Assembly: GCA_964581115.1 (NCBI GenBank)
Contig: CAZOMY010000010.1
Location: forward strand, 8,764 to 72,763
Reading direction: 5' to 3'
Source of the DNA: an uncultured Ignavibacteriaceae bacterium
GTDB taxonomy: Bacteria; Bacteroidota; Ignavibacteria; UBA10030
DNA: 64,000 bases
The notes below the pieces were generated by a model. The model saw only the letters and a program-made list of their open reading frames with translations, was not told the origin of the DNA and did not search any database. A program made the translations under genes and the position numbers. Numbering within the stretch: the first letter of the stretch is position 1; each line of letters starts with the position of its first letter. Positions 9,267 to 46,660 of the stretch are shown piece after piece.

Positions 9267-9320
9267 GTCCATTCGGAGTGTGGAATGCGATCGGAACGAT
9301 GTGCGGTCGAGCGTTGCATC

Positions 9321-31732: not shown

Positions 31733-33193
31733 TCAGGACTTGAGCCCCAAGTCCTTGCACATTCGATGATAGTTCGGGGGTGCCAGGCCAAGTTTCTTCG
31801 CGGCCTCGGCATCGGAAGAGGAATTCGACCGGACAAACTGGAAATACCGGAGACGGAACAACCTCTCCATCTCACGCAACGGCAAAAGATCGTCCGTACT
31901 GCTGAAAGCAATAGTGTGCGGGCTGTCTGGCGGGGGGATCGCAGGGGCGAGGGAGAGGTATTCCGACACGATGTCGGCCGTGATCACCGACTCGCCCATC
32001 AGCAGCAGGCGCTGTACGACATTCTTGAGCTCGCGCACATTGCCCGGCCAGGCGTAACCGGCGAGCACGCGGTGGGCGCCGTCCTCCGTCATCGGCGCAG
32101 GCACGCCCATGTCGAGGCTCATCTGGCGGACAAAATGTTCCCACAAGACGGGAACATCCTCTTTCCGGTCCTTGAGCGATGGAAGGTGGATCGGCACGAC
32201 GTTCAGACGATAGAACAGGTCTTCGCGGAATCGACCGGAGGAGATCTCGTTCTGAAGGATCTTGTTCGTAGCCGCAATGATCCGGACATCGACCTTGGTA
32301 CGGTGTGTCCGTCCGATCTTTTCGATCTCGCCGTCCTGCAACACCCTCAGCAGCTTGACCTGCGCCGGCAATGGGAGCTCGGCGACCTCGTCAAGAAAGA
32401 TCGTTCCGCGATGGCCCGCCTCGAACAGGCCGATCTTGGGACGGTCGGCTCCCGTGAAGGATCCCTTTTCGTGTCCGAACAGTTCGCTCTCAACAAGATG
32501 ATCGGGAATGCTTCCGCAATTGATCGGCACATAGTTCTCCAGCCGGCGGCCGCTCTGATAATGGATCTGCGATGCCACGAGTTCCTTCCCCGTGCCCGAC
32601 GCGCCGCTGATCAAGACGGAGGCATCGGTTGAAGCCACCTGGCGGACCTGCGCCCGGACCTTTTGGATCGCAGGCGAGACGCCGATCAACCGCGTGCGAG
32701 CCAGCACCTCCTCGGCATTACGGACCAGTTTGCCTTCGGTTCGGTCCTGCTCGCGTCGCAGCCGGCGTTGTTCCGCTGCGTTGACAATGCTGAGGATAAA
32801 ATCCGTCGGCTGATAGATCGCCTCCTCAATGTCGGTCGGATACTTCGTGCAATACCAGAACGCACCGGACTTGAGAAGCCGGTTGGCGAACTCATAGTCG
32901 GTGATGTTCACCGTCATCTTGGTGATGACGATGATGGGCAGCGACGGTTGCCAGCGTTTGATCTCGCGAATGAGCGCCTCGCCCATCACACCACCCGCGA
33001 TCTGCATGTCCATGATGACGACGTCGAGGTTCTCCCCTTCCGCACGAACGAGGTCGATCGCCGCGTCGCCATGCGACACGACCTGCCGGATCTGCAGCTG
33101 TTCGGCGAAGGGCTGCAGCGTACGGCGGACGCGGCGCACGTCGAAAGCCTCGTCTTCGATCAGCAGGATCCGTACCGGGTGGGCGACGAGCAT
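31733..33193 (-). CDS. Sigma-54-dependent response regulator (NtrC/NtrX-like: REC + AAA+ + HTH)
   Basis: ILLIEDE, VIMDMQ (phospho-Asp), Walker A GASGTGKE, ESELFGHEKGSFTGA, Walker B IFLDEV, RFREDLFYRLNV, WPGNVREL, C-terminal AAKKLGL. True start 33193. Confidence 0.93.
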   Translation of the reverse strand: MLVAHPVRILLIEDEAFDVRRVRRTLQPFAEQLQIRQVVSHGDAAIDLVRAEGENLDVVIMDMQIAGGVMGEALIREIKRWQPSLPIIVITKMTVNITDYEFANRLLKSGAFWYCTKYPTDIEEAIYQPTDFILSIVNAAEQRRLRREQDRTEGKLVRNAEEVLARTRLIGVSPAIQKVRAQVRQVASTDASVLISGASGTGKELVASQIHYQSGRRLENYVPINCGSIPDHLVESELFGHEKGSFTGADRPKIGLFEAGHRGTIFLDEVAELPLPAQVKLLRVLQDGEIEKIGRTHRTKVDVRIIAATNKILQNEISSGRFREDLFYRLNVVPIHLPSLKDRKEDVPVLWEHFVRQMSLDMGVPAPMTEDGAHRVLAGYAWPGNVRELKNVVQRLLLMGESVITADIVSEYLSLAPAIPPPDSPHTIAFSSTDDLLPLREMERLFRLRYFQFVRSNSSSDAEAAKKLGLAPPNYHRMCKDLGLKS

Positions 33194-33210
33194 ACGCGAA
33201 TGGGGATCGT

Positions 33211-34713
33211 TCAGGCCGTGAAGGCGAAGGTGAATCGGGCGCCGCTTCCCGGGATGTTCTCTGCATTCAGCGACCACCCGAGACGTTGGGTGGCGATCTC
33301 GTGAGCGATGAAGCAGCCGTAGCCGGAGTGTTCCTTGGATCCTTGGGGCGCGGCGCTGACATGCTCCAGGAACAGCCGCTGGATGCCTCGGACGTCGGGC
33401 TGAAGCAGTTCGTTGCGGATGCCACGGCCATTGTCCTCGACGACGATCGTGGCCTGCCGGGAGGATGCGTCGTAGGTTGTGCGCACGTGCACCACGACGC
33501 CTGCAACGCCCGCGTGGTCGAGGGCGTTCTGGAGCACCGGTTCGACGATCTCCCACAGGACATATTCATTGACGGCGACGCAAGGCAGGTGGGGGTCGAG
33601 GTCGAGGTCGAACCGGAACGTGGAGGTTCCGCCGGCGACACGGCGGAAAATGTTGTCGACCAAGAATCGAAGGACCTCGTTGATGTCGGTCGAGAACATC
33701 GGCCCGCGCACGGTCTGGATCGGCGGGTCGTACCATTTCATATCATAGATGACGCGGGCAATGAAGCTGGCGTACTTGCCGATGCGATACCGCACCTCCT
33801 CCATGTTGGCCACGGTCATCGAGCGGAGATCTTCCTTGATGAAGCCTCCGATCTTCTCAGCCTTATGGTGGGCATGATAGATCCTCTTGGCGAAGATCGT
33901 CTCTTTTTGATGATGGATCTCATCGGCCAGATGGCGCTTCTGCTCCTCGAACAGCGCCTGGAGGGCGTCGTTCCGCTCGCGGAGCGTGCGCGTCGACACC
34001 ACGTACATCCCAAGAAACCCTATGAAGATCAGGCCGGCATAGACCAGCGCCGTCTGGTCGTTGATCGCCGAAAGGGCGCCGGTCAAGAATGAGAGGTCGG
34101 GGGCGCTCTTCATATAGACGGCCCCGGCAAACTCACCCTGCGGCACAAAGGGCACGAACACGTGAAAAGCCCCGAGGTCATCGACCACGGTGGTGATCTG
34201 CTCCCGATGGCGCAGACGCGGCTCCAGCATGCGGTACCATCGCAAGGCTTCGGCATGCGCGACCGTATCGCTCCGAACGTGTCCCCCCTCGCGGTACAGC
34301 AGCTCGAACAGCTCTTGCCCGTCGTCCACGATCGCGAGTCCCTCCGGCCCTCGGATGAGAATGCAGACACTCTGGACGTTCTTGTCGAGCAACTGTTGGC
34401 TGAAGATGATGTTGAACTCCTGCACGATCTGCAGGGCCCGGTCGTCGCTCATCGACTGTCGCGTCGGGTGCGATTCGAGCAGCAGTTCGATCGACGTGGC
34501 TGAAAGGTTGGCGATGCGTTCGGCGGCGTCCTGTCGGTACCACTGCTGGGTCTGGTCGAACACGTCGTGGAGCGCGCTTTGGTTCAGGAACAGGACGATG
34601 ATTTGAAAGCCGATCAACACCAACAGCAGAACGGTGAGATGGCGGATCTCGAACCGGTATTTGCGCAGCGGATGCAGGAGCGCTGCGAAACGGGCCTGGA
34701 AATCGGGCCTCAT
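33211..34713 (-). CDS. Membrane sensor histidine kinase with periplasmic domain and atypical H-box
   Basis: Two TM helices flanking a ~190 aa periplasmic domain; HATPase VLQNALDH, VEDNGRGI, HSGYGCFI; H-box region reads RIYHAHHKAEKIG. Confidence 0.8.
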   Translation of the reverse strand: MRPDFQARFAALLHPLRKYRFEIRHLTVLLLVLIGFQIIVLFLNQSALHDVFDQTQQWYRQDAAERIANLSATSIELLLESHPTRQSMSDDRALQIVQEFNIIFSQQLLDKNVQSVCILIRGPEGLAIVDDGQELFELLYREGGHVRSDTVAHAEALRWYRMLEPRLRHREQITTVVDDLGAFHVFVPFVPQGEFAGAVYMKSAPDLSFLTGALSAINDQTALVYAGLIFIGFLGMYVVSTRTLRERNDALQALFEEQKRHLADEIHHQKETIFAKRIYHAHHKAEKIGGFIKEDLRSMTVANMEEVRYRIGKYASFIARVIYDMKWYDPPIQTVRGPMFSTDINEVLRFLVDNIFRRVAGGTSTFRFDLDLDPHLPCVAVNEYVLWEIVEPVLQNALDHAGVAGVVVHVRTTYDASSRQATIVVEDNGRGIRNELLQPDVRGIQRLFLEHVSAAPQGSKEHSGYGCFIAHEIATQRLGWSLNAENIPGSGARFTFAFTA

Positions 34714-36014
34714 TTGAGCAACACCGTGTTCGTGCGGACCATGGCGTCGGCCTGTCGGAGAGCGTCGTCGACGGCCAGCTCACCCCGGATCGCACGGTGG
34801 AAGTAATGCGAGACGACGTCGGACGTGCGGGTGTAGTCGACGATCATCGGTCGGTGAAAGCCGCGCTGGACGAGTCCGTGGTAGAAGGAGAGTTCGGGAT
34901 GCGCAACGATCAGGCTCGAATCGCGATACACCTCCGAATGGACCGGAATGAAGCCGCTCCGTACGAACAGGAGCCGCTGCGAGCGTGGGGCTTGAAGGAA
35001 TCTGATGAATTCAACCGCCTCGGCCTTCTTCAACGAAGCACGCGAGACCATCAGGTTCCATCCGCCGAACACCGACCGCGAAGCGCCGCCTCGGCTGTGC
35101 GGCAGGGGCGCCCGTCCCACCGAACGAAGCTTGGCCGTGTCCGGGTAGAACCCGGCGAAGTTCTCGATAAAATTCGGCCACCCTCGCACGAAGACGGCGT
35201 CGCGGTCCAGGAAGTACCGATAGCTTTGATTCTCGTCGAAGACGGTCGCCTCCGCCGGCGTCCACCCCTCCTGCACGAAGCGTATAAGACGTGCCAGAGC
35301 AGATTTCGCCGCCGGTACTCTCATATCGAGCCTGTTCCGATCGAGATAGGTGCTGTCGTCTCCCATAGCTTGTTCAAGGAAGCAACAGACCAGGCCTTCG
35401 TAGGCCTTGGCAGGGTAGAGAAAGAACGGGCGATGCTCGTACCCCATGCGCCGGCGCAGCGCATCCAGTTCGTCCCATGTCATCCCCTCCTGCAATCGCC
35501 GCTCGACCGCCGCGCCGTCGGGCAGGCTTCGAATGAGGTCCCGCCGATAGTAGAGGAGCCCGACGTCGAGATACATCGGAGCCGCGACGAGCGTGTCGCC
35601 GACGATGCACGAGGACAGCGCCGTGGCCATGAACTTGTTGCGCTCGTCGGGAGGAAAGTAGGCGTCGAGCGGCTCTCCCCACCGGGCGAACCTTGAGACC
35701 CAGATCAGGTCCACCGCGAACACGTCGAGCTTCTCGCTCTTGCTGCGCAGGGAGCGCGCAAGCAACTCCTTGCGCTCATTCGTCGAGAATTTGTCGAATG
35801 GCAGGTCGACCGGCACCACTTCGATCCGGCCGGCATAACGACGGTTAAACTCGGCGATCAGCTCGCGATGAGCCTGCGAGATATGGTCGGCGTAGTAGAC
35901 GCGAACCGGATCGGAGCCGTTGGCCGGGCCCAATGGAGGTCGGAGGTACGCGTTCAGGGCCAGCAACAGCGCAAAGCTGGCCGCCACGAGCAGGGCAAGG
36001 TTCCTCAGCCGCAT
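34710..36014 (-). CDS. Extracellular sugar-binding protein (ABC SBP family 1 fold) with no ABC permease/ATPase nearby
   Basis: LDVFAVDLIWVSRFA, DVGLLYYRRDL, TWDEL, YEGLVC, AVFVRGWP, SVFGGWNLMVS, EAVEFIRFL; ATGA overlap with the kinase. Confidence 0.88.
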   Translation of the reverse strand: MRLRNLALLVAASFALLLALNAYLRPPLGPANGSDPVRVYYADHISQAHRELIAEFNRRYAGRIEVVPVDLPFDKFSTNERKELLARSLRSKSEKLDVFAVDLIWVSRFARWGEPLDAYFPPDERNKFMATALSSCIVGDTLVAAPMYLDVGLLYYRRDLIRSLPDGAAVERRLQEGMTWDELDALRRRMGYEHRPFFLYPAKAYEGLVCCFLEQAMGDDSTYLDRNRLDMRVPAAKSALARLIRFVQEGWTPAEATVFDENQSYRYFLDRDAVFVRGWPNFIENFAGFYPDTAKLRSVGRAPLPHSRGGASRSVFGGWNLMVSRASLKKAEAVEFIRFLQAPRSQRLLFVRSGFIPVHSEVYRDSSLIVAHPELSFYHGLVQRGFHRPMIVDYTRTSDVVSHYFHRAIRGELAVDDALRQADAMVRTNTVLLK

Positions 36015-36056
36015 GGGCAGGCCTGTTCAAGATCGGACGTCATCGGCGTTCGTCGA

Positions 36057-37337
36057 TCACCGTCGGCCGCGACCCGTCGCTGGCTTCTTGGTGGGAGGCC
36101 TCACGGCACGGCGGGACGGTGATGCCGATCGCCTCGCCCCCATACCCGCCAGGATCGCCACCACATGCTCCTGCATCGGAAGTCCGGGCACGATCACCTC
36201 GCCCGATGGCGAAATGACGACGTCGATCTCGCTCCGAACCCCGAACCGGTCGCGCAGATAGATGCCCGGCTCGATCGAGAAGGAGGTCGACGGCAGAATG
36301 CGCCGTTCATCGTGTGTTTCAAGGTTGTCCATGTTGGCGCCGTTGCCGTGGATCTCTTCGCCGATCGAATGGCCGGTACGATGGACGAAGAAGTCTCCGT
36401 AGCCGTGGGCCGCGATGTACCTTCTCGCGGCGTCGTCCACCTCGTACCCGCAGATCGGCTGCTTCTCTGCAAACCGCTTGCGGACGAGCGCCAGGGCCGC
36501 ATCCCTTCCACCCTTCACCACCTGGAAGACCTTCTCATACTCGTCGGGAACCGTCTCGCCGATGAACCCCGTCCACGTGATGTCGGCATACACCGCTCGC
36601 GCTTTCTTTTTCTTCGCCCACAGGTCGAGAAGAACGAAGTCGCCTTTCTTGAGCGGGCTGTGGACCTCTTTGGTCGGTTCGTAGTGCGGATTGGCGCTGT
36701 TGGCGTTGACCGAACAATTGGGGTCGCTTTCGGTATGGAGGCCCCGCTTCTTGAACTCGTCGAGCATGTATTGCTGGACGTCGTATTCCGTGGTCTTCTT
36801 GCCCGCCGCGATGCGGTCGCGGATGAACCCGAATACTTTGTCGACGATCTCGCGCAGATGCTTCGCGGTTACGGCGTTGTCCTTCATCTGCTCGTCATCC
36901 CAGACCGCCTCGAAGGCCGCTACCAGGTTGGCCGACGATACGACCTGTACACCTGCCGATCGAACGAGCTCCACGGTGCCGGCGTCGACGGTGGACACGT
37001 ACGGGATGGCGCACTGCGGCGAGTATTCCATGGCCACATTCCTCGCACCGGCAAGGATCTGCTTCAGGCCCTCTGCCAGCGACGGCCAGCTCAGATAGAC
37101 CGTCTTCAAGCCCGGTGCGGTGTCAAGGTTCCATTCCTCGATACGGTGGACAAGCTTGCGCGGCTCACCGTTGGCCGGAATATAGAAGAAGTACCGCCGC
37201 GTGCACATGATGTGCTTCGGCAGGTCCAGTAACCGCGTGGCGAACACGTTCGACCCGCGGAAGTTGTAGAGTAGCCAACCGTCGAGGCCCTCGGAGCGGA
37301 GAACCCTCTGGATCTCCTGAATTCTAGCAGAGGTCAT
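36057..37337 (-). CDS. M24 family (Xaa-Pro) metallopeptidase
   Basis: LLDLWAK, YADITWT, HRTGHSIG, FSIEPGIY, RSEIDV; start MTSARIQ at 37337. Confidence 0.9.
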   Translation of the reverse strand: MTSARIQEIQRVLRSEGLDGWLLYNFRGSNVFATRLLDLPKHIMCTRRYFFYIPANGEPRKLVHRIEEWNLDTAPGLKTVYLSWPSLAEGLKQILAGARNVAMEYSPQCAIPYVSTVDAGTVELVRSAGVQVVSSANLVAAFEAVWDDEQMKDNAVTAKHLREIVDKVFGFIRDRIAAGKKTTEYDVQQYMLDEFKKRGLHTESDPNCSVNANSANPHYEPTKEVHSPLKKGDFVLLDLWAKKKKARAVYADITWTGFIGETVPDEYEKVFQVVKGGRDAALALVRKRFAEKQPICGYEVDDAARRYIAAHGYGDFFVHRTGHSIGEEIHGNGANMDNLETHDERRILPSTSFSIEPGIYLRDRFGVRSEIDVVISPSGEVIVPGLPMQEHVVAILAGMGARRSASPSRRAVRPPTKKPATGRGRR

Positions 37338-37351
37338 TGGTATACCCTTTT

Positions 37352-37437
37352 GATTGCGGATTGCGGATTGGCGATTTCGGATTATCATAGGAGGACTTCC
37401 GCCGATAATCTGAAATCCACATTCCGCAATTCGAAAT
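37352..37437. repeat. Inverted pair of degenerate heptamer arrays (GATTGCG/GATTTCG units)
   Basis: Left arm GATTGCGGATTGCGGATTGGCGATTTCGGATTATC; right arm GATAATCTGAAATCCACATTCCGCAATTCGAAAT; 17-nt spacer. Confidence 0.75.
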
Positions 37438-37499
37438 GATCCAGTACAAACACTGAAGCCCAGGATTTCTCCCGGGCTCCAATGTAATCCGTCTTCTTC

Positions 37500-38660
37500 T
37501 TACTTCCCAGCAGGACTTTCCGATGTCGTCACCGCTTCGGCCGGCACGGGCGTCTTGCGGTGCGACGGGCGCTTCTTCCGCATGTACTTTCGCTCCACCG
37601 GATGTTGCTCCGGCCATTCCTCTTCGACGTCCGGATAGGTGAAGATGTCGTACTTGTAGTTGCGGAGGATGATGTCCTTGCCGTTGCGGCCCAGCACATA
37701 TTGCGGCAGGAGCGGGATCTTGCCGCCTCCGCCCGGCGCGTCGATCACGTAGTAGGGCACCGCCAGCCCCGACGTATGGCCGCGGAGCTTGTCCATGATC
37801 TCGAGCCCAACGCGCACGGGGGTTCGGAAGTGGTTGGTCCCCTTGGTCAGGTCGGCCTGGTAGATGTAGTACGGCCGGACCCTCATTTTGAGCAGCTTCC
37901 GATGGAGCTCGAGCATCACATCGGGGTCGTCGTTGACCCCCTTCATCAGCACAGCCTGGTTGCCCACCGGACAGCCGGCGTCGGCCAGCATCGCACAGGC
38001 CTTCTCGGCCTCGGGTGTGCACTCCCACGGGTGGTTGAAATGCGTGTTGACGTAGATGGGATGGTACTTCTTGAGCATCTTGACGAACTTCGGTGTGATG
38101 CGCTGCGGTAGAACGCAGGGCATCTTCGTGCCCAGCCGGATGATCTCCACATGCGGTATGGCGCGAAGACCGGCCAGCACGCGCTCGAGTGCGTAGTCGG
38201 TGACCATCAGCGGGTCGCCGCCTGAAAGGACGATGTCGCGGATCTCGGGATGCGCCGCGATGTAGTCGAGGCCTTGCTGGATCCACTTCGCATTGATCTT
38301 CGTCGAGTCGCTCACCTTCCGCTTGCGGGTGCAGAAGCGGCAGTACATGGAGCATTGACTCGTGATGAGGAAGAGCACGCGGTCGGGATAACGGTGGGTG
38401 ATGCTCGGCACCGGGCTGTGGGCGTCCTCGTTGAGCGGATCTTCGGGCGCGCCGTCATCCTCCAGCTCGACGGCGTCGGGAATGCACTGCAGCCAGATGG
38501 GATCGCCCGGATATCGGATGAGGCTCAGATAGTACGGGTTGACCCGAATGTGGAAGAACTTGTTCAGCTTTTCGGCGGTCGAGGTGTCGAACCCGAATCG
38601 CTCGACGAGATCCTTGCCGCTATCCACGCTCTGACGCAGCATTTCCTGCCAGAGTTCCAT
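37500..38660 (-). CDS. kamA: KamA-family radical SAM enzyme, lysine 2,3-aminomutase
   Basis: HRYPDRVL, CSMYCRFCTRKR (CxxxCxxC), LSGGDPL, HFNHP, NQAVL, PYYIYQAD, RGHTSG, VIDAPGGGGK (PLP lysine and both substrate-binding Asp positions kept). Confidence 0.9.
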   Translation of the reverse strand: MELWQEMLRQSVDSGKDLVERFGFDTSTAEKLNKFFHIRVNPYYLSLIRYPGDPIWLQCIPDAVELEDDGAPEDPLNEDAHSPVPSITHRYPDRVLFLITSQCSMYCRFCTRKRKVSDSTKINAKWIQQGLDYIAAHPEIRDIVLSGGDPLMVTDYALERVLAGLRAIPHVEIIRLGTKMPCVLPQRITPKFVKMLKKYHPIYVNTHFNHPWECTPEAEKACAMLADAGCPVGNQAVLMKGVNDDPDVMLELHRKLLKMRVRPYYIYQADLTKGTNHFRTPVRVGLEIMDKLRGHTSGLAVPYYVIDAPGGGGKIPLLPQYVLGRNGKDIILRNYKYDIFTYPDVEEEWPEQHPVERKYMRKKRPSHRKTPVPAEAVTTSESPAGK

Positions 38661-38683
38661 ACCGGGGGAACGTCCTCCTTCCG

Positions 38684-39208
38684 TTACAGGTGTTTGGTGT
38701 AGATGACCAGGTCGTCGTCCGGGGCGTAGTAGCCGCGGATCCGGGCCGTCTCGTCATACCGATGGCGGCGGTAGAAGCTCCGCGTCGGCTCATACTTCGG
38801 CAGCGATGAGGTCTCGACGACGATGAGCGTCCCTCCGCTCGCTGCAATGCGTCGTTCACAGTGTTCCAGCAGTGCCGACCCGATCCCACCACCGTGGCAT
38901 GTCGGGTCGACGGCGATCCAGTACAGATCGTACGTCGAGCGCGTCATCGAAGTGTGACCGTAGCAGTAGTAGCCGCGTACGGTCCCGCCTTCGTCCTCGT
39001 ACGTCGCCAACAGATAGTCGGTCTGCGACGGATCGTTGACGGAGGCGTCCATCAGTTCGAGCGCCACCTCCACCTCTTCGTCTCGGAACACACCGGTGGC
39101 CTCGAGGATCCTTCGCAACGGCTCACGGTCCGATCCCCGAAACTCCCGGATGAATCCTTTCGTCCGGACGACCTTCTCAGCCGCCACCGTCGATGTCAGC
39201 TCAGCCAT
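38684..39208 (-). CDS. GNAT family N-acetyltransferase
   Basis: YDLYWIAVDPTCHGGGIGSALL acetyl-CoA motif A; VETSS...TRSFYRRHRY. Confidence 0.9.
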   Translation of the reverse strand: MAELTSTVAAEKVVRTKGFIREFRGSDREPLRRILEATGVFRDEEVEVALELMDASVNDPSQTDYLLATYEDEGGTVRGYYCYGHTSMTRSTYDLYWIAVDPTCHGGGIGSALLEHCERRIAASGGTLIVVETSSLPKYEPTRSFYRRHRYDETARIRGYYAPDDDLVIYTKHL

Positions 39209-39281
39209 TTGCTGATCATCCGCCACGAAGTGGCCGCTTTGCGGCGATCGACAATCTTCAATCCGAAATTCCCTCTCGACC

Positions 39282-40376
39282 TCACGGAGTCCTTTCCCAA
39301 GCGTACTCCACGATCCTTCCGATGATCTCATTGAAAGACAGCCCGTAAGCGCGGGCCGAGCGCGCAAAGCCAGCGTCGTCGGAGATGTCCGGGTTCGGGT
39401 TGACCTCGAGGATGTGGAGATTCCCTTTCGCATCCAACCGCATGTCCACGCGGCCGTAGTCGCGAAGGTTCATCAGCTTGTACGCCTTCAACGCGATCTC
39501 TTTCGCCCTGAGCTCGGTCTCTTTGGGAATGTCGGCGGGACATACGCCCTTCGTGCCAAGGTATTCCGGCGTTCCTTCCATCCACTTCGCGGCGTAGCTC
39601 ACGATCTTCGGGTAGTCTTCCGGAAGGCCGGAGAAATCGATCTCGGAGATCGGCAGGACGATCGGCCGCTTGTTCCCCATGATGGCCACGTTCAATTCCC
39701 GACCCACGATGTATTCTTCCACGAGGGCCGGCTGGTCGAATGTCTGAAAGATGTAGCGAATGCGCTTCCGCAGCGCAGGGATCGAATCGACGATCGAATT
39801 GTTGTCGATGCCGACGCTCGCATCCTCGCCCGACGGCTTCACGATGACCGGGAACCGGAGATCGAAATCTTCGAAATTCAGCGTGCTCGAATGCTTGAAC
39901 AGCGCGAACCGCGGCGTCGGAAGACCGTGTGCCGTCAGGATCTCCTTCGTGCGGAACTTGTGCAGACATGTCCCAAGCGCAAACGCCGAAGCGCCGGTGT
40001 ACGGAACGCCCATCAGCTCGTAGAGCCCGGCCACGTGCATTTCGTGGATCGACTCGTTCCCGACCGATTCGCACAGGTTGAAGATGATATCCGGCTTCGA
40101 CTCCTCCAGAAAAGCGATGAGACGCTTGATGTCGCCATTCATATTGAAGAGCGACGACCGGTATCCACAGTCTTTGAGGGCCTGCTCGACATGCTCCCGT
40201 TCCTCGAGCACCCCCACCTCGGACAGATCGATCGCAACCTGGGCCGCCTTTTCCTTCATTTCGGCGTGCGTTGGAATTGCCTTCAATTCCCCGGTCTCGG
40301 AGACGTATTTTCGCCCGTTGAGCGTCTCGATTGTCGGTTCATTGAAAACAACGGCTACATGCACCTTTTTGGCCAT
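39282..40376 (-). CDS. D-Ala-D-Ala-ligase-like ATP-grasp ligase (copy B)
   Basis: IIFNLCES, VPYTGA, LHKFRTK, FPVIVKPSGEDASVGI, LVEEYIVGRELNV, SYAAKW, YGRVDMR, ILEVNPNPD; lacks the canonical Ddl GGxSxE N-terminus. Confidence 0.88.
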   Translation of the reverse strand: MAKKVHVAVVFNEPTIETLNGRKYVSETGELKAIPTHAEMKEKAAQVAIDLSEVGVLEEREHVEQALKDCGYRSSLFNMNGDIKRLIAFLEESKPDIIFNLCESVGNESIHEMHVAGLYELMGVPYTGASAFALGTCLHKFRTKEILTAHGLPTPRFALFKHSSTLNFEDFDLRFPVIVKPSGEDASVGIDNNSIVDSIPALRKRIRYIFQTFDQPALVEEYIVGRELNVAIMGNKRPIVLPISEIDFSGLPEDYPKIVSYAAKWMEGTPEYLGTKGVCPADIPKETELRAKEIALKAYKLMNLRDYGRVDMRLDAKGNLHILEVNPNPDISDDAGFARSARAYGLSFNEIIGRIVEYAWERTP

Positions 40377-40456
40377 GGCTCTTCCCGCAAGTTATTGGAG
40401 GATGGTGCGTTCGGTCCGACGTTCTCTGCCGGAAGTTGAGCGTTCGTCGGCAGGTG

Positions 40457-41569
40457 TCATGATGGCAAGGAGTTGTGGCGTCCGATGCGGACCAAGGCCG
40501 CGTCCAGCACCATGTTGATCATCCGATCGTAATCGATGCCCGCCGCGCGGGCCGCCTGCGGAAAACAGGAATGGTCGTCGGGGTTGGGAAGGATGCCGGG
40601 AAGAGGATTCAACTCTATCAGATTCGGCTCGCCCGCCGCGTCAAGTCGCACGTCAATGCGGCACCAATCGCGGCAGCGCAAGAGTCGGTACGAACGCTTG
40701 CAGAGATCAATGATCTTCTGTTCGAACGCAGGAGAAAGCTTCGCAGGACACTCGTGAACGTCGAGCGGCTTGTCAAGTGTATCCCACATCCACTTCGCCT
40801 CGAACGACCAGATCGGATTTGCGCCGTCCGGCAGATCGTCGAATTTGATCTCGACGATCGGCAGGACGCGAAGGTCTTCGCCGTTGCCGATGAGGGCCAC
40901 GGTGAATTCCCGTCCGGTGAGGAATTGTTCGATGAGGGCCGGTTCGTGGTAGCGCTCGGTCACGCGGCGCACCTCCGCTTCGAGCTCCTGCGGCGTGCGC
41001 ACGACGGAAGAATTCATGATCCCTTTGCTCGAACCTTCGTGCAGCGGCTTGACGATCGACGGAAGCGGAAGGTCGAGTCCGACGAGATCATCCACCGAGT
41101 CGACGACATGGAACGCGGGCGTAGCGACACCATGATACGCCAGCACTTCTTTTGCGCGCGACTTGTCGAGACAGATGCCGAGGGTCAACGGGTCGGACCC
41201 GGTGTACGGAATGCCCAGCATCTCCAGCATGGCGGGGATCTGCGCCTCGCGCGAAGGACCGCGAAGCCCCTCGGCGATGTTGAACACGATGTCGGGCTGG
41301 AGATCGGCGAGTGCGTTGAAGGCGTTACGATCCGCTTCGACGAGACTGACACGATGGCGCTGTTCCAGGGCTGATTTGACGGCGAGAATGGTCTCTTCGG
41401 TGTCCCATTCAGCGTATGTGTCGTCTCTCGTGAGGAGGGCGCGAGCCGTCTCGACATTCGTCGAGTCGTGAACTCGCGGCGAGGTCGGCGTCGCTTCAGC
41501 AACCGAAGCGATCGGTGCAGATTCGTGCTTGATGTTGTAGACGAGAGCGACGTGCAGTGCGGTACTCAA
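40457..41569 (-). CDS. D-Ala-D-Ala-ligase-like ATP-grasp ligase (copy A)
   Basis: IVFNIAEG, IPYTGSD, LDKSRAK, IVKPLHEGSSKGI, LIEQFLTGREFTV, SFEAKW, WCRIDVR, IELNPLPG; TTG start, position uncertain. Confidence 0.88.
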   Translation of the reverse strand: MSTALHVALVYNIKHESAPIASVAEATPTSPRVHDSTNVETARALLTRDDTYAEWDTEETILAVKSALEQRHRVSLVEADRNAFNALADLQPDIVFNIAEGLRGPSREAQIPAMLEMLGIPYTGSDPLTLGICLDKSRAKEVLAYHGVATPAFHVVDSVDDLVGLDLPLPSIVKPLHEGSSKGIMNSSVVRTPQELEAEVRRVTERYHEPALIEQFLTGREFTVALIGNGEDLRVLPIVEIKFDDLPDGANPIWSFEAKWMWDTLDKPLDVHECPAKLSPAFEQKIIDLCKRSYRLLRCRDWCRIDVRLDAAGEPNLIELNPLPGILPNPDDHSCFPQAARAAGIDYDRMINMVLDAALVRIGRHNSLPS

Positions 41570-41663
41570 GCAGCGCTATCAACCTCGTGTTGGTGAACGA
41601 TCGTCGCGTCCGACTTCCTGTCAACCGCCGGGCAGGCCGTCATCGACGCTCAACGTTGATACT

Positions 41664-41691
41664 AATATAAGGGTTTGACATCCGTTGTCAA
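41664..41691 (-). promoter_or_regulatory. Sigma-70-type promoter of the ligase-ligase-GNAT-kamA operon, overlapped by palindromes
   Basis: Minus strand TTGACA-N16-TATATT; TTGACA-N5-TGTCAA dyad over the -35; TCAACGTTGA (41650-41659) near the predicted start. Confidence 0.6.
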
Positions 41692-42071
41692 GTTTTTCTG
41701 ACCTCGAGCGAGCTCCGAGCGAGTCCCGAACTCATCCATCGAGACGAGTCGAGGAGCGAGTCGACCCTCGACGTTGCTCGGGTCGACCCCAAGCATTCGA
41801 GGGGTCGAAAGGTCAGCTGCCGTCCACCATCCGACCGACTTCAGTCGCGGACGATCACACCTCCCCCCATCGTACGACCTCCGACCCGAGATCGTCCGAC
41901 GATGATCGATCACGATCGAGAGACGACGGATCGGACCGACGACGGCCCGGTCGAAGACGGGACGATGGCTAGACTTGACGACGAAGAGTCGAACGGGTAA
42001 CGAACGGTGGACCGGAGCACGCGGAGAGGAGGATGACGAAGCGGTAAGGCGTTGACGGGCGGTCGGAGGAC

Positions 42072-44255
42072 TCAGCCGACCGATCCCAGATCGAAGAGGT
42101 CTCGGTAGTTTTCCTCGAAATGTGTGCGAATTTCGCTATGCTCAGGCTTACGAAGGTGCGGATCGGCCTCGACGATCCTTCCGGAGAGGACACGAGCCCG
42201 TTCGAGAAGCTCTCGATCCCTGATCGGGTCGGCCACGGTCAGTATGGGGGCACCGCTCTGACGGGTGCCGAAGAACTCCCCCGGTCCACGAAGCTCCAGG
42301 TCCACCTCCGAGATCCGGAAGCCGTCGGTCGTCTCTTCCATGGTCTTCAACCGACGGATCGCCCGGTTCTCCTCCGCCTTCTGCTGCGCAGGGTCCAGCC
42401 CCTTGAGGCTTCTATGATAGAGTGGGGCATTGGAGATCAGGATGCAATAGGACTGGTCGGCCCCCCTCCCCACCCGGCCGCGCAACTGGTGAAGCTGCGA
42501 CAACCCGAACCTCTCGGCATTCTCCACGATCATGACTGTCGCGTTGGAAACGTCAATGCCGACCTCGATGACGGTCGTCGAGACCAGGACATCGACCCTT
42601 CCCTCCTGGAGGTCCCTCATAACCGCCTCCTTCTCCTCCGAGGTTTGCCGGCCGTGTAACAGCGCCAGCCGAAGCCCCTTGAGCGGACCTTCGCGCAGGT
42701 CTTCAAACGCCACCGTGGCCGCTTTCAGATCGACCTTTTCCGACTTTTCGATAAGGGGGAACACAACATAGGCCTGTCGTCCCCGGGCCACCTCATGACG
42801 GACGAATTCGTACACCTTTCCCTTCTGTTCCTCCGTCCTGATCGCCGTCCTGATGGGACGCCGGTTGGCCGGCATTTCATCGATGGTGGAGATGTCCAGG
42901 TCGCCGTAGATCGACATCGCGAGGGTTCTGGGGATCGGCGTGGCGGTCATGACAAGCACATCCAGGTCGATCCCTTTCTTTCGAAGCGCCGCCCGCTGTT
43001 CTACGCCGAATCGGTGCTGTTCATCAATGACAGCCAGACCCAGGTCGGCGAACTCCACCCCCTCTTCTAACAGTGCATGCGTCCCGACGACCAATTGGGC
43101 GATTCCACGCCGGATGTCCTCGAGAATATCCCGCCTCAGACGTTTCTTCTGCCCTCCAACGAGCGTCCGCACCTGGACCCCCAGCCCTTCGGTCATTCGC
43201 CGCAGCGTCCATGCATGTTGCTCTGCCAACACCTCCGTGGGGGCCATAAAGGCCGCCTGGGCGCCATGGTCGATCGCGCGCAGACAGGCCAGAAGCGCCA
43301 CGACCGTCTTTCCGCTTCCAACATCACCCTGCAGGAGGCGGTGCATCGGTCGGGGCGATCGCATGTCGTCAGTGATCTCGGCGAGCACTCGCTTTTGTGC
43401 GGAGGTGAGTTGATAGGGCAGCAAAGCGAGCAAGCGATCAGCCAGCGGGGTCGGACCGTCAAAGCGGCGTCCGGGGCGCGCGGCAGTGGCCACCCGACGC
43501 AGATGCATCATCAGTTGAATGAAGAACAGCTCGTCGAAGGCCAGCCGCTTTCGCGCTTCGGCCAACGAGGTCCATGAGAGCGGAAAATGGACCTGTTCGA
43601 CGGCGCGATGGATCGGGAGGAGGTGCTCGGAGCTGATCAGAGTCGAGCCGAGTCGTTCGGGAATGCATGTCGGGACGCGAGGCAGAGCGTTCCGCATCAC
43701 GCGCCTGATCCCACGACTATCGAGTCCGACGGCGGTCAGTTCGGCGGTCGAAGAGTATTTGGGGATGATGGCGCCGGTGTTGAACAGCTTGCCCCAGTCG
43801 GGCTCGTCTTCCTCGGAGCTGGCCAGACGGTCGAACTGCGGATGGATGAATTGCGGCCGACCCAGCCGATCGAGCGTCGGGACCGCCGAGAGGGCCAACA
43901 CCTCTCCTTCGGCGAACGCATCCTTGAGCCACCGGTAACCCTCGAACCAGACGCAGGTCAGCGTTCCGGTCCCGTCCGAGACGCTCAGCAGGAACATCAT
44001 CCGGTGGGTCGTCCTGGTCTTTCGAGCTTCGACCTTGATAACGTTCCCAACGACGGTGACATCCGGCGCGTCGGCAACGGACCTGCGGAGGTCCCGAATG
44101 CTGATGATGCGGCTGCGGTCGAGATAGTCGAACGGGAATCTGAGCAGGAGATCGCGGACGGACCGGATCCCGTGCTTCTGAAGGACCTCCGCCCGACGCG
44201 GACCGATGCCTTTGAGGTACTGGAGGTCAGACGATGTTGAAGACTTTGCGATCAT
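42072..44255 (-). CDS. recG: ATP-dependent DNA helicase RecG
   Basis: LKGIGPRR, RLAFDELF, LLQGDVGSGKT, MAPTEVLAEQH, IDEQHRFG, MTATPIPRTL, LHQLRGRVGRG, DLELRGPGEFFG. Confidence 0.98.
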   Translation of the reverse strand: MIAKSSTSSDLQYLKGIGPRRAEVLQKHGIRSVRDLLLRFPFDYLDRSRIISIRDLRRSVADAPDVTVVGNVIKVEARKTRTTHRMMFLLSVSDGTGTLTCVWFEGYRWLKDAFAEGEVLALSAVPTLDRLGRPQFIHPQFDRLASSEEDEPDWGKLFNTGAIIPKYSSTAELTAVGLDSRGIRRVMRNALPRVPTCIPERLGSTLISSEHLLPIHRAVEQVHFPLSWTSLAEARKRLAFDELFFIQLMMHLRRVATAARPGRRFDGPTPLADRLLALLPYQLTSAQKRVLAEITDDMRSPRPMHRLLQGDVGSGKTVVALLACLRAIDHGAQAAFMAPTEVLAEQHAWTLRRMTEGLGVQVRTLVGGQKKRLRRDILEDIRRGIAQLVVGTHALLEEGVEFADLGLAVIDEQHRFGVEQRAALRKKGIDLDVLVMTATPIPRTLAMSIYGDLDISTIDEMPANRRPIRTAIRTEEQKGKVYEFVRHEVARGRQAYVVFPLIEKSEKVDLKAATVAFEDLREGPLKGLRLALLHGRQTSEEKEAVMRDLQEGRVDVLVSTTVIEVGIDVSNATVMIVENAERFGLSQLHQLRGRVGRGADQSYCILISNAPLYHRSLKGLDPAQQKAEENRAIRRLKTMEETTDGFRISEVDLELRGPGEFFGTRQSGAPILTVADPIRDRELLERARVLSGRIVEADPHLRKPEHSEIRTHFEENYRDLFDLGSVG

Positions 44256-44280
44256 CGATCTGTTCCGCCGATGTGGAGGT

Positions 44281-44370
44281 GACCACGAAGAGCACGAAGC
44301 CACACGAAGAAATGATGCGACAGCTGAATCTGCAAAAAATCACTCCGTGCTCTTGGTGCCCTTCGTGGTT
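44281..44370. repeat. Inverted doublet of 9-10-mer tandem units (CACGAAG / CTTCGTG)
   Basis: GACCACGAAG AGCACGAAG CCACACGAAG, 33-nt spacer, CTCCGTGCT CTTGGTGCC CTTCGTGGTT. Confidence 0.75.
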
Positions 44371-44371
44371 C

Positions 44372-46042
44372 CTATTTGAGATCAGCACGTCGCTCGTACA
44401 CCACCCGCCCCCCAACGATCGTCACATCGACCTTCACATTCTCGATCTTCACCGGATCGATCGAGAAGATATCATCGGACAGCACGACGATGTCGGCAAG
44501 CTTGCCGGGGGTGAGGCTTCCTTTCTCGTCCTCCTCGAAGGCCGCGTAGGCGTTCGTGAGCGTATAGGCCTCGACCGCTTCGGCCACGGTGATCTTTTGC
44601 TCGGGGAACCATCCACCCGGTGTCGCTCCGTCGATCGTCCGGCGCGTGACGGCCGCGTAAATCCCCAGCAGCGGGTCGAGCGGACCGACGGTCCAGTCGC
44701 TGCCGAAGCTCAACTTGATGCCGGCGTCGAGGAAGGAGCGGAAGGGATAGGTCGTGCGGCAACGCTCGTGGCCGATCCGCTTCTCCGCCCACCGACCGTC
44801 ATCGATGGCATGGTAGGGCTGTGCCGATGCGATGACGCCGAGCTGTTCGAATCGGACAAAGTCCTTGGGATGGATATGTTGGGCATGTTCGATGCGGAAT
44901 CGCCGGTCCCACGCAGGATTCTCGCGGCGGATCCTCTCAAAGAGGTCGAGCATGAGACTGTTGGCGCTGTCGCCAATGGCATGGATCGAAAGCTGCAGTC
45001 TCGCCTTATCGGCCGCGAACGCCCACGTCTCGAGCCGGCCGTCGAGGACGATATCGCTTGGGAGGCCCCGCGTCGATGGGTCGGAGTCGTACGGCCTGTA
45101 GAACAGCGCCGTCGAGGAACCGAGCGAGCCGTCGGCGAATGCCTTGAGCGATCCCACGCGGATCCATTCGTCGCCGAAGGGCGCTTCGAGCCCTGCATCG
45201 GCCAGCGATTTCCATTCTCCTATCGGTATGCGGCAATGGAATCTTGCCGTAAGATTTCCAGCGCGACGAACGGACTGATAGGCGCGGATATGGGCGCCCG
45301 TCGAGACATCCTGGATCGAAGTGACGCCGAACCGTCGTGCCTCGGCCAAAGCCAGCAATGCCGCCTCAACCAGTTCCTCATGCGTCTCGGCGGGCATGAC
45401 GCGATAGACGAGCGTCATGGCTTCGTCTTTCAAGATGCCGGTCGCTTCGCCGGTCAGGGGGTCGCGGACGATCGAGCCGCCAGGAGGGTCGGGCGTCGAC
45501 TTCGTGATACCGGCGAGCTTGAGCACGTGCGAATTCGCCAGCGCCATATGCCCGTCGTATCTATTCACAAAAACGGGCGTCGAGCCCGTGACCGCATCGA
45601 TCAGCTCTTTGGCCGGCAGAGGACCTCCGGGCCATGCGTCATGGTCCCAATCGCCGCCCGTGATCCATCTTCCAGGATGCTTCGCGGCCCGTTCACCGAT
45701 GCGGCGGGCAAACTCCTGCGGCGTCGCCGCGTTGCGAAGATCGACCGACTGCAGCTGAAAGCCGCCGGTCATGAAATGCGTGTGATTGTCGATGAATCCG
45801 GGAAGCGTTCGACGGCCTTTGAGGTCGATCACCGTTGCGTTCGGGCCGGCCATCGCCCGAACGTCAGTGTTGGACCCGACAGCCAGGATCCGGTCCCCCG
45901 CGACCGCGATTGCCTGGGCCTCGGGTCGAGAAGGGTCGACGGTCCAGATCTTGCCGTTGACGAGAAGGAGGTCGGCAGGTTTTGGCTGGCCAAGGACGAT
46001 GGTCGATGCCAGGAGGAGGGTTGTTGCACGTCGAACAAGCAT
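44372..46042 (-). CDS. YtcJ-like amidohydrolase (amidohydrolase 3 family), secreted
   Basis: RBS GGGAG; signal peptide; LPGFIDNHTH, RYDGHMALANS, LKAFADGSLGS, IHAIGD, RIEHAQ, FGSDW, GSLTPGKLADIVVL. Confidence 0.92.
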   Translation of the reverse strand: MLVRRATTLLLASTIVLGQPKPADLLLVNGKIWTVDPSRPEAQAIAVAGDRILAVGSNTDVRAMAGPNATVIDLKGRRTLPGFIDNHTHFMTGGFQLQSVDLRNAATPQEFARRIGERAAKHPGRWITGGDWDHDAWPGGPLPAKELIDAVTGSTPVFVNRYDGHMALANSHVLKLAGITKSTPDPPGGSIVRDPLTGEATGILKDEAMTLVYRVMPAETHEELVEAALLALAEARRFGVTSIQDVSTGAHIRAYQSVRRAGNLTARFHCRIPIGEWKSLADAGLEAPFGDEWIRVGSLKAFADGSLGSSTALFYRPYDSDPSTRGLPSDIVLDGRLETWAFAADKARLQLSIHAIGDSANSLMLDLFERIRRENPAWDRRFRIEHAQHIHPKDFVRFEQLGVIASAQPYHAIDDGRWAEKRIGHERCRTTYPFRSFLDAGIKLSFGSDWTVGPLDPLLGIYAAVTRRTIDGATPGGWFPEQKITVAEAVEAYTLTNAYAAFEEDEKGSLTPGKLADIVVLSDDIFSIDPVKIENVKVDVTIVGGRVVYERRADLK

Positions 46043-46159
46043 GGCGACTCCCTGAACGTTCGAGCGCCAAAGTACCGACAAGCCGACCCAATTTCAAACG
46101 GGTTGAACATCTCAAGAAGGTGGAGTACGTTTCCAAACAGACAAACTGCAGGTCAACTC

Positions 46160-46660
46160 ATGACACGACGTCCATTCATCTTCACGATCCTGTCCCTCGC
46201 ATCGACGGCCATCCTTTCGGCCCAGCAGGTGGAGGAACCGCCGATCCCTGTGATGATCGTCTGCCCGTATCATGAGGATAGTCTGCGTCGGGCGTACGAG
46301 TCAGACTTCGCGATGGACGGCAACCCCCAGCGCCATCAGTTGGACTCGGTCAGCCTCCGTGCCATTCGGGCTGCTACGGACATGTCGGCGCAGATGGAGC
46401 GGTCGTTCACATTCTTGTATCTCCTTCTGGCCATCCTGGCCCTGACTTCGATCGCCGCCCTTCGTGTGGCCTATCGGCTGAGGTCGGAGTTGCAGGACCT
46501 GCGTCGGTCACAGCACGTTCCGACTCTCTCGTTGCCCGCTCCCGTGGTCGTCGATTCGTCGCCGCTTCGCAGCCCAAGCCGGAAAAACTCAAGACCGAAA
46601 CCCACCCAACGACCGTCCAAGGTCAATCGATCTTCAGGGCGTCCCCGTTCCCGTCGTTGA
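46160..46660 (+). CDS. Hypothetical membrane protein (signal peptide, one TM helix, Arg/Ser/Pro-rich tail)
   Basis: MTRRPFIFTILSLASTAILSAQQ; TM FTFLYLLLAILALTSIAAL; fills the gap divergent from the amidohydrolase. It is the last 166 aa of the 808-aa track ORF. Confidence 0.65.
   Translation: MTRRPFIFTILSLASTAILSAQQVEEPPIPVMIVCPYHEDSLRRAYESDFAMDGNPQRHQLDSVSLRAIRAATDMSAQMERSFTFLYLLLAILALTSIAALRVAYRLRSELQDLRRSQHVPTLSLPAPVVVDSSPLRSPSRKNSRPKPTQRPSKVNRSSGRPRSRR

Follow-up and report, generated by a model that had tools for sequence, protein, structure and literature searches.

What does an operon make that couples a lysine 2,3-aminomutase and an N-acetyltransferase to two ligases resembling D-alanine-D-alanine ligase (Ddl)? 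The question is raised by a 64,000-nucleotide (nt) stretch of contig CAZOMY010000010.1 (assembly GCA_964581115.1) from an uncultured Ignavibacteriaceae bacterium, hereafter the window. On its minus strand lie, in order of transcription, lig1 (40457-41569; 370 amino acids, TTG start with GAGG 12 nt upstream) and lig2 (39282-40376; 364 amino acids), which encode Ddl-like ATP-grasp ligases of subfamilies 1 and 2, followed by the genes for a small, 2R7H-related GNAT N-acetyltransferase (38684-39208; 174 amino acids) and for KamA (37500-38660; 386 amino acids), a lysine-type 2,3-aminomutase of the radical S-adenosylmethionine (SAM) and pyridoxal phosphate (PLP) class. An earlier note on this DNA had described a four-gene operon here, and the open reading frames (ORFs) confirm it; the families of all four proteins were confirmed by Pfam and NCBIfam. 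The GNAT start was taken from the gene call on two public contigs encoding an identical lig1, and a longer ORF reaching 39433 overlaps lig2. The genes are separated by gaps of 80, 73 and 23 nt, and no terminators were found on the coding strand of the operon interior. With confidence a little better than even, we read the four genes as a biosynthetic module around beta-lysine, whose product would be a small N-acetylated beta-lysine di- or tripeptide-like metabolite, probably a stress or compatible solute.

The conversion of L-lysine to beta-lysine by KamA is the best-supported step of this reading, because the protein keeps the lysine-binding and cofactor residues and AblA is its best model. 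KamA passes the family model TIGR00238 (297.2 bits against a cut-off of 199.2). Against the AblA equivalog TIGR03820 it scores 461.3 bits, which lies below the cut-off of 525.4 and is still the highest score of any equivalog; the glutamate, arginine and EpmB aminomutase models score lower, EpmB reaching 231 bits. The protein matches the lysine 2,3-aminomutase of Clostridium subterminale (PDB 2A5H) with E=1e-119, and the motifs QAD and IDAPGGGGK, which the earlier note had quoted as lysine-binding, align with D293 and with D330/K337 of that structure. In that enzyme Asp293 and Asp330 hold the epsilon-ammonium group of lysine, and both are retained in the window protein, as had been claimed, together with R134, the PLP lysine K337 and the CxxxCxxC cysteine triad (CSMYCRFC). 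The same residues and the triad are also retained in eight of the nine other lineages examined. A different pattern is seen in one locus (L084, 7171-9258), where a lig1-KamA fusion, preceded by an aminotransferase gene, has Gln instead of Asp293 and its GGGGK loop is shorter; because of these two changes, the aminomutase of this locus may use a substrate other than lysine.

The two ligases belong to the Ddl branch of the ATP-grasp enzymes, and public annotations name them D-alanine-D-alanine ligase. Both match the Pfam domain Dala_Dala_lig_C (E=1.6e-32 for lig1 and 3.1e-35 for lig2), and their matches are to Ddl-type models and structures only, at 22-33% identity. However, neither reaches a curated cut-off: on the best NCBIfam Ddl model, NF002378 (cut-off 243 bits), lig1 scores 186.8 and lig2 161.1, and both fall even further under the cut-offs of the other Ddl/Van models. 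The AlphaFold model of lig1 (pLDDT 78) has a complete three-domain Ddl fold, in which residues 15-53 form a disordered insertion. In a Foldseek search with this model, the top 50 matches were all Ddl (22-27% identity, TM ~0.8), and no closer solved structure was found among them. Lig1 and lig2 are 33% identical to each other. The same division recurs in other lineages, and the contig that we assign to a Nitrososphaerales archaeon has one ligase that shares 47% identity with lig1 and a second that shares 44% with lig2; lig1 and lig2 thus represent two old orthologous groups.

The residues of the active site were surveyed in 165 lig1-type and 132 lig2-type sequences, using the numbering of an Escherichia coli DdlB sequence that agrees with the PDB alignments at residues 68-305, the N-terminal part with E15 and H63 lying outside them. 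K97, K144, E180, K215, R255, D257, E270 and N272 show little or no variation in either type. Since these are the catalytic residues for ATP, Mg and the acyl-phosphate, both ligases should be catalytically competent, and the three-domain fold of Ddl is likewise present. The D-Ala site of Ddl (the GGxSxE loop, H63, S150, Y216, S281 and L282), in contrast, is not conserved. In lig1, H63 is replaced by Glu in all 165 sequences, the Glu15 position is acidic, S150 is kept as S or T, S281 is kept, and Y216 is W or E, with Y216 changed to E and L282 to D in the Desulfovibrio-like clade. In lig2, S150 and S281 are replaced by A and L282 by G, and Y216 is W in 132 of 132 sequences. The predicted substrate pockets are therefore altered with respect to Ddl and to each other. 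The motifs quoted earlier for the two ligases are also in place: SFEAKW/SYAAKW and NPLPG/NPNPD align with YEAKY and NTSPG of DdlB. The accompanying statement that the ligases lack the GGxSxE start held for the GG loop, which is replaced by Asn and an insertion, but not for the acidic residue, since an AE[WF]D motif occupies the place of SAERE (Glu15) in DdlB.

The GNAT protein is a generic small GNAT by Pfam (Acetyltransf_7, 39.5 bits against a cut-off of 27; Acetyltransf_1, 33.5 against 20.7). Its best curated model is RimI, with 42 bits against a cut-off of 86.4, followed by other generic GNATs, and among its relatives are proteins named after Woeseia, Gammaproteobacteria and Planctomycetota. 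The AblB model (TIGR03827) was absent from its matches at both E<=0.001 and E<=1, and the streptothricin acetyltransferase models Sat3 and STAT gave non-significant values (E=0.056 and 0.13). The earlier note had drawn an analogy with the AblA/AblB pair; this stands for KamA and fails for the GNAT. The closest solved relative is PDB 2R7H, with which the protein aligns end to end (E=3e-30), an uncharacterised structure deposited as a "putative D-alanine N-acetyltransferase". A protein 99% identical to 2R7H sits in a KamA-lig-lig-GNAT operon (L093), so the deposited name probably echoes the "Ddl" annotation of its neighbours.

We then considered how widely the four genes are kept together; by the earlier note's own account, a lack of joint conservation would have refuted its proposal. 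With lig1, 80 genome loci were retrieved, in which the order lig1-lig2-GNAT-KamA held wherever the contig allowed, and each of the 61 Ignavibacteriota-like loci that had sufficient flank has all four genes side by side; the nearest relatives are metagenome-assembled genomes (MAGs) labelled Ignavibacteriaceae, Ignavibacteriales or "Bacteroidetes". A metagenome scan with the Desulfovibrio-type lig1 as the query added 80 loci, mostly of the order KamA-lig1-lig2-GNAT. In this distant clade, 27 loci had enough flank, and KamA was present in 26, lig2 in 24, GNAT in 21 and all four genes in 21. The adjacency in all 61 Ignavibacteriota-like loci is far beyond chance, and the presence in Desulfovibrio bears out the earlier statement that the arrangement occurs in other anaerobes. 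The full set also occurs in other gene orders in Nitrososphaerales, in Desulfovibrio mangrovi, in the 2R7H-type organism and in other lineages, and one further lineage has a full set that contains a lig1-lig2 fusion. The assignment to Nitrososphaerales is based on a lig1-type protein of the contig, which shares a 90%-identity cluster with a protein named Nitrososphaerales archaeon. The family as a whole is much wider: among 1.84 billion cluster representatives searched, 1361 clusters matched at E<=1e-30, a figure that includes ordinary Ddl scoring near that level.

Gene fusions link the same four activities. The best 150 representatives include 101 single lig1-type proteins, 17 lig1-lig2 fusions, 21 other tandem ligases and 3 fusions with KamA in one order or the other. 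KamA-lig1 fusions occur in P0256 and P0351 and a lig1-KamA fusion in P0310, and lig2 is fused to the GNAT in L083, P0353 and P0366. On one contig the entire pathway is encoded as two proteins, KamA-lig1 and lig2-GNAT. This pairing of KamA with lig1 and of the GNAT with lig2 suggests an order of steps, and two minimal loci that contain only KamA and lig1 (L127 and L165) fit lig1 acting first on beta-lysine. The lig1-lig2 fusions fit ligases that work as a pair, for which the earlier note had suggested a heterodimer. In the AlphaFold model of a natural lig1-lig2 fusion, both modules are well folded (pLDDT 86) and the linker is disordered, and the model (pTM 0.50) is uninformative on packing.

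The pathway that we propose would begin with the formation of beta-lysine from L-lysine by KamA. Lig1 would take beta-lysine directly and form an amide bond in an ATP-dependent reaction via an acyl-phosphate, as in Ddl; direct use is proposed because lig1 can be fused to KamA, because some minimal loci contain KamA and lig1 only, and because the acyl-donor site has gained a Glu. Beta-lysine would most likely be the acyl donor: the acidic residue that corresponds to Glu15 of DdlB would bind its beta-ammonium group, and the invariant Glu in place of His63 its epsilon-ammonium group. As the partner we envisage an amine with a carboxylate group, bound through the conserved equivalent of Ser281. 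A second amide bond would be formed by lig2, whose pocket is differently lined, and the GNAT would finally acetylate a remaining primary amine, probably an epsilon-type side-chain amine. From these steps we infer an acetylated beta-lysyl di- or tripeptide as the product, as the earlier note had done.

A recurrent accessory gene bears on the target of acetylation. It encodes a highly conserved 585-amino-acid fusion of a GNAT with a domain of the histone-deacetylase fold, and it is located within the operon or directly behind it. Of the 27 loci with enough flank, 7 have this gene, and it is found in further loci as well; across L095 (9629-11386), L098, L106, L116, L118, L120, L135, L148, L153, L155, L161, L167 and L169 the protein is 55-64% identical. 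An aliphatic primary amine is suggested as the group that is acetylated and deacetylated, because the best solved relatives of the deacetylase part are acetylpolyamine amidohydrolases (E ~1e-64). In some lineages this enzyme would take the acetyl group off again. The combination of an acetyltransferase and a deacetylase within one protein is odd.

Peptidase genes near the operon vary, and none belongs to the core. The window itself has an M24B Xaa-Pro-dipeptidase-like gene downstream of KamA (36057-37388, minus strand; Pfam Peptidase_M24, and PDB 5XEV matched with E=2.5e-80), which is only possibly associated. Its true start is probably near 37337, because homologues align from about residue 18-23. 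This gene was considered as a core member and rejected, as it follows KamA in only 19 of the 61 related loci. M3 peptidases are found in L091 and L127, and in L085 a tandem ligase, made up of a divergent module and then a lig1-type module (8001-11432), is directly followed by a gene for a peptidase of family S58, the DmpA/BapA family of beta-aminopeptidases; no KamA lies within 8 kb of this ligase.

The proposed role as a cytoplasmic stress or compatible solute is the weakest part of the reading. It is favoured because of the analogy with N-epsilon-acetyl-beta-lysine and N-acetylglutaminylglutamine amide (NAGGN), and because genes for ion transport or chaperones adjoin two loci (Kef/Na-H exchangers in L083 and GrpE-DnaJ in L087). 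Several points weigh against the reading as a whole. The solute role draws on analogy and a few neighbouring genes, the ligase substrates are deduced from residue changes, and the order of the steps and the acetylated nitrogen are guesses. The module occurs in MAGs from freshwater, soil and groundwater, with no tie to saline habitats. In addition, recG shares in the synteny within Ignavibacteriota, and the conservation within this phylum is therefore partly simple vertical inheritance. A PlsC-like acyltransferase gene after KamA replaces the GNAT in L088 (1793-6213), and an MFS transporter gene follows KamA-lig1 in L127; both would fit a lipid-linked or exported product. L088 also encodes a 103-amino-acid zinc-ribbon protein (Zn_ribbon_8), whose gene ends one base before the start of the first ligase.

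The same observations can be set against other explanations. If the ligases joined beta-lysine units to one another, the product would be a short polycationic oligo-beta-lysine, either an intracellular polyamine-like cation or an exported antimicrobial, and acetylation by the GNAT and deacetylation by the APAH (acetylpolyamine amidohydrolase)-like enzyme would turn its charge or its toxicity on and off, much as streptothricin self-resistance works. The extra acidic residues at both substrate sites of lig1 (H63E throughout, and Y216E and L282D in the Desulfovibrio-like clade) would suit such a cation, as would the polyamine type of the accessory deacetylase, the MFS transporter of L127 and the S58 gene adjoining the tandem ligase of L085, in a family that includes beta-aminopeptidases. 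However, two ancient and distinct ligase subfamilies are kept everywhere, which suits two different bonds better than iterative polymerisation, and the conserved core includes no transporter. An antibiotic would not usually be universal and syntenic throughout a phylum, as this module is, and L085 lacks KamA within 8 kb; we consider this explanation unlikely. A protein target appears quite improbable. In that case an ATP-grasp ligase would place beta-lysine on a side chain or terminus of a protein, as EpmA/EpmB do for elongation factor P (EF-P) or RimK for ribosomal protein S6, and the GNAT and the deacetylase would act on the protein. KamA relatives do serve EF-P modification, the best curated GNAT model, RimI, is a protein N-acetyltransferase, although the score is far under its cut-off, and the APAH-like domain has the histone-deacetylase fold. 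On the other hand, KamA is far nearer to the AblA model than to EpmB (461 against 231 bits), Ddl-type ATP-grasp enzymes act on small molecules and the close structural neighbours of lig1 are all Ddl, and the deacetylase is nearest to amidohydrolases of small-molecule acetylpolyamines. The loci contain no conserved candidate for a target protein, and the module occurs in an archaeon, where aIF5A is modified differently.

The public annotation, together with the sequence and fold matches, which are all to Ddl, would make the ligases normal or auxiliary enzymes of peptidoglycan synthesis that form D-Ala-D-Ala (or D-Ala-D-X), placed beside KamA and the GNAT by accident or for modification of the cell wall. 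We find this highly improbable, in agreement with the earlier view that they are not ordinary Ddl. Both proteins are under every curated Ddl cut-off, and the GG loop, H63, Y216 and L282 are altered. The ligases are fused to KamA or the GNAT in several lineages, and the neighbours are KamA, the GNAT and recG, with no mur or fts genes nearby. A Nitrososphaerales archaeon carries the complete module, and Nitrososphaerales are not known to have murein. The archaeal occurrence and the failure to pass as Ddl make a role in the cell wall unlikely, and the cell-wall modifier that had been offered as one option for the product is accordingly disfavoured. No canonical ddl was found elsewhere in the 64-kb window. 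There is equally little room, in our judgement, for KamA as the first step of lysine fermentation or catabolism with unrelated housekeeping genes beside it. KamA starts the lysine-to-butyrate pathway in anaerobes, but neither a beta-lysine 5,6-aminomutase nor any later gene of lysine fermentation is among the genes called near the cluster, as far as the gene calls show (no search by name was made). A biosynthetic unit is also what the fusions suggest, and so does the fact that KamA and the ligases always occur as partners.

The N-acetylated beta-lysine peptide, which we prefer to these alternatives, can be placed among known systems, since the enzyme families and the logic of aminomutase, ATP-grasp ligation and GNAT capping are already known. 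One of the closest is the AblA/AblB pathway to N-epsilon-acetyl-beta-lysine, found in methanogens and proposed also for Pelobacter carbinolicus (PMC3543383). There too, a lysine-type 2,3-aminomutase is followed by GNAT acetylation in a compact gene cluster. The present module differs in that KamA is under the AblA equivalog cut-off (461 against 525 bits), the GNAT is of the small 2R7H type without an AblB match, and two ATP-grasp ligases are obligatory partners; the product would therefore carry up to two amide bonds more than N-epsilon-acetyl-beta-lysine. The NAGGN system (the Ngg GNAT and ATP-grasp protein, with AsnO) similarly combines GNAT acetylation with an ATP-grasp peptide bond to yield a small capped peptide osmolyte, and a peptidase gene accompanies its operon, comparable to M24 in some of the loci described here. 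Its homology to the present proteins is at the superfamily level only (model TIGR03103, E=0.19 over the GNAT segment); the building block is glutamine there and beta-lysine here, the ligases here are two separate proteins, and the four-gene cluster contains no amidotransferase partner. With DdlA/DdlB and VanA the ligases share the three-domain fold (TM ~0.8) and the complete ATP/Mg/acyl-phosphate residues, and they differ in identity (22-33%), the altered N-terminal loop with its insertion, the genomic partners and the archaeal occurrence.

Two further systems follow a related logic. In pyrrolysine biosynthesis, lysine is rearranged by PylB, a radical SAM enzyme, and the resulting amino acid is joined to another amine by PylC, an ATP-grasp ligase related to Ddl. 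However, PylB is outside the KamA family, the module here has two ligases and a GNAT and no PylD equivalent, and PylC was not detected as a relative of the ligases in a PDB sequence search at E<=1e-5. In the biosynthesis of streptothricin and blasticidin S (BlsG/BlsI), a beta-amino acid is provided by a 2,3-aminomutase and afterwards linked through an amide bond; BlsI is an ATP-grasp ligase, and in streptothricin resistance a GNAT (STAT/SAT) acetylates a beta-lysine amine. The clusters concerned belong to the secondary metabolism of actinomycetes and contain many additional genes, and streptothricin is built with enzymes resembling nonribosomal peptide synthetases (NRPS), whereas the module here consists of four genes and extends through a phylum and across domains. 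No study of the cluster came up in full-text searches, subscription-only papers being outside their coverage, and within the same coverage no assigned product, in line with the earlier note.

The claim that the operon has its own promoter is also supported. A sigma-70-type promoter, TTGACA-16 nt-TATATT, lies on the minus strand at 41691-41664, some 95 nt ahead of the lig1 start codon, and agrees with the consensus at 11 of 12 positions. Upstream sequences were compared across eight lineages whose lig1 proteins are 61-89% identical to that of the window, and the promoter block, AAAAACTTGACAAC...TTATATT, was the sole conserved stretch. The ~500-nt spacer between recG, which lies upstream, and lig1 (41570-42071) is unusually long for such a gene-dense window and, the promoter aside, is unconserved in relatives. 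An Rfam scan of 36000-42300 at E<=1 gave one chance-level match only and thus no riboswitch or known RNA, and an alignment fold of six 5' leaders predicted zero pairs, so no conserved leader structure was detected.

The Desulfovibrio-type operons are arranged differently. D. mangrovi and the 2R7H-type organism have a gene for a sigma-54 activator beside the operon, and paired GGAAC-N6/7-GTTCC palindromes occur upstream of KamA in L093 (5311-5470), L095 (5294-5575) and L091 (6350-6600). A sigma-54 -24/-12 element, TGGCATATCTGTTGC, was matched upstream of KamA in L095, the D. mangrovi locus, and a further -24/-12 element, GGCACGGTGTTTGCA, is visible by eye in L091. Together, the activator and the palindromes look like a dedicated regulator with putative binding sites. 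No sigma-54 promoter and no GGAAC palindromes were found upstream of lig1 in the window, both being confined to the Desulfovibrio-type loci.

Some features of the surroundings are recorded for completeness. Downstream of M24, the minus strand (31733-36014) carries, besides genes for a solute-binding protein and a histidine kinase, a long ORF (31733-33556) whose sequence suggests a sigma-54-dependent response regulator; the solute-binding protein and histidine kinase genes are also present in the two closest relatives, L003 and L004. An 808-amino-acid ORF on the plus strand (44234-46660) overlaps a minus-strand ORF (44372-46081). The public contigs have an Amidohydro_3 gene call at the relative position of this minus-strand ORF, and the plus-strand frame is almost certainly spurious, a product of high GC content. 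When ORFs of at least 200 amino acids were picked greedily without overlap, 33 of 36 were on the minus strand.

The question is directly testable, since Desulfovibrio species are culturable and genetically manipulable and their operons have a dedicated sigma-54 activator with clear upstream sites. If the proposed reading is true, a compact, cross-domain module of four genes makes an undescribed beta-lysine conjugate, which would add to the short list of beta-amino-acid solutes. It would also mean that the Ddl branch of the ATP-grasp enzymes holds two new substrate specificities, now mis-annotated in bulk as D-alanine-D-alanine ligase, and it would assign a function to the orphan structure 2R7H. 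More tentatively, and as a possibility that we would not yet count on, the module may define a new class of beta-amino-acid peptides, N-acetyl-beta-lysyl di- or tripeptides or short oligomers, made by the first ATP-grasp ligases dedicated to beta-amino acids and serving as a stress protectant or polyamine-like cation. Such a class would span Ignavibacteriota, Desulfovibrionaceae, Planctomycetota and ammonia-oxidising archaea, and its product may supply natural substrates for beta-aminopeptidases.

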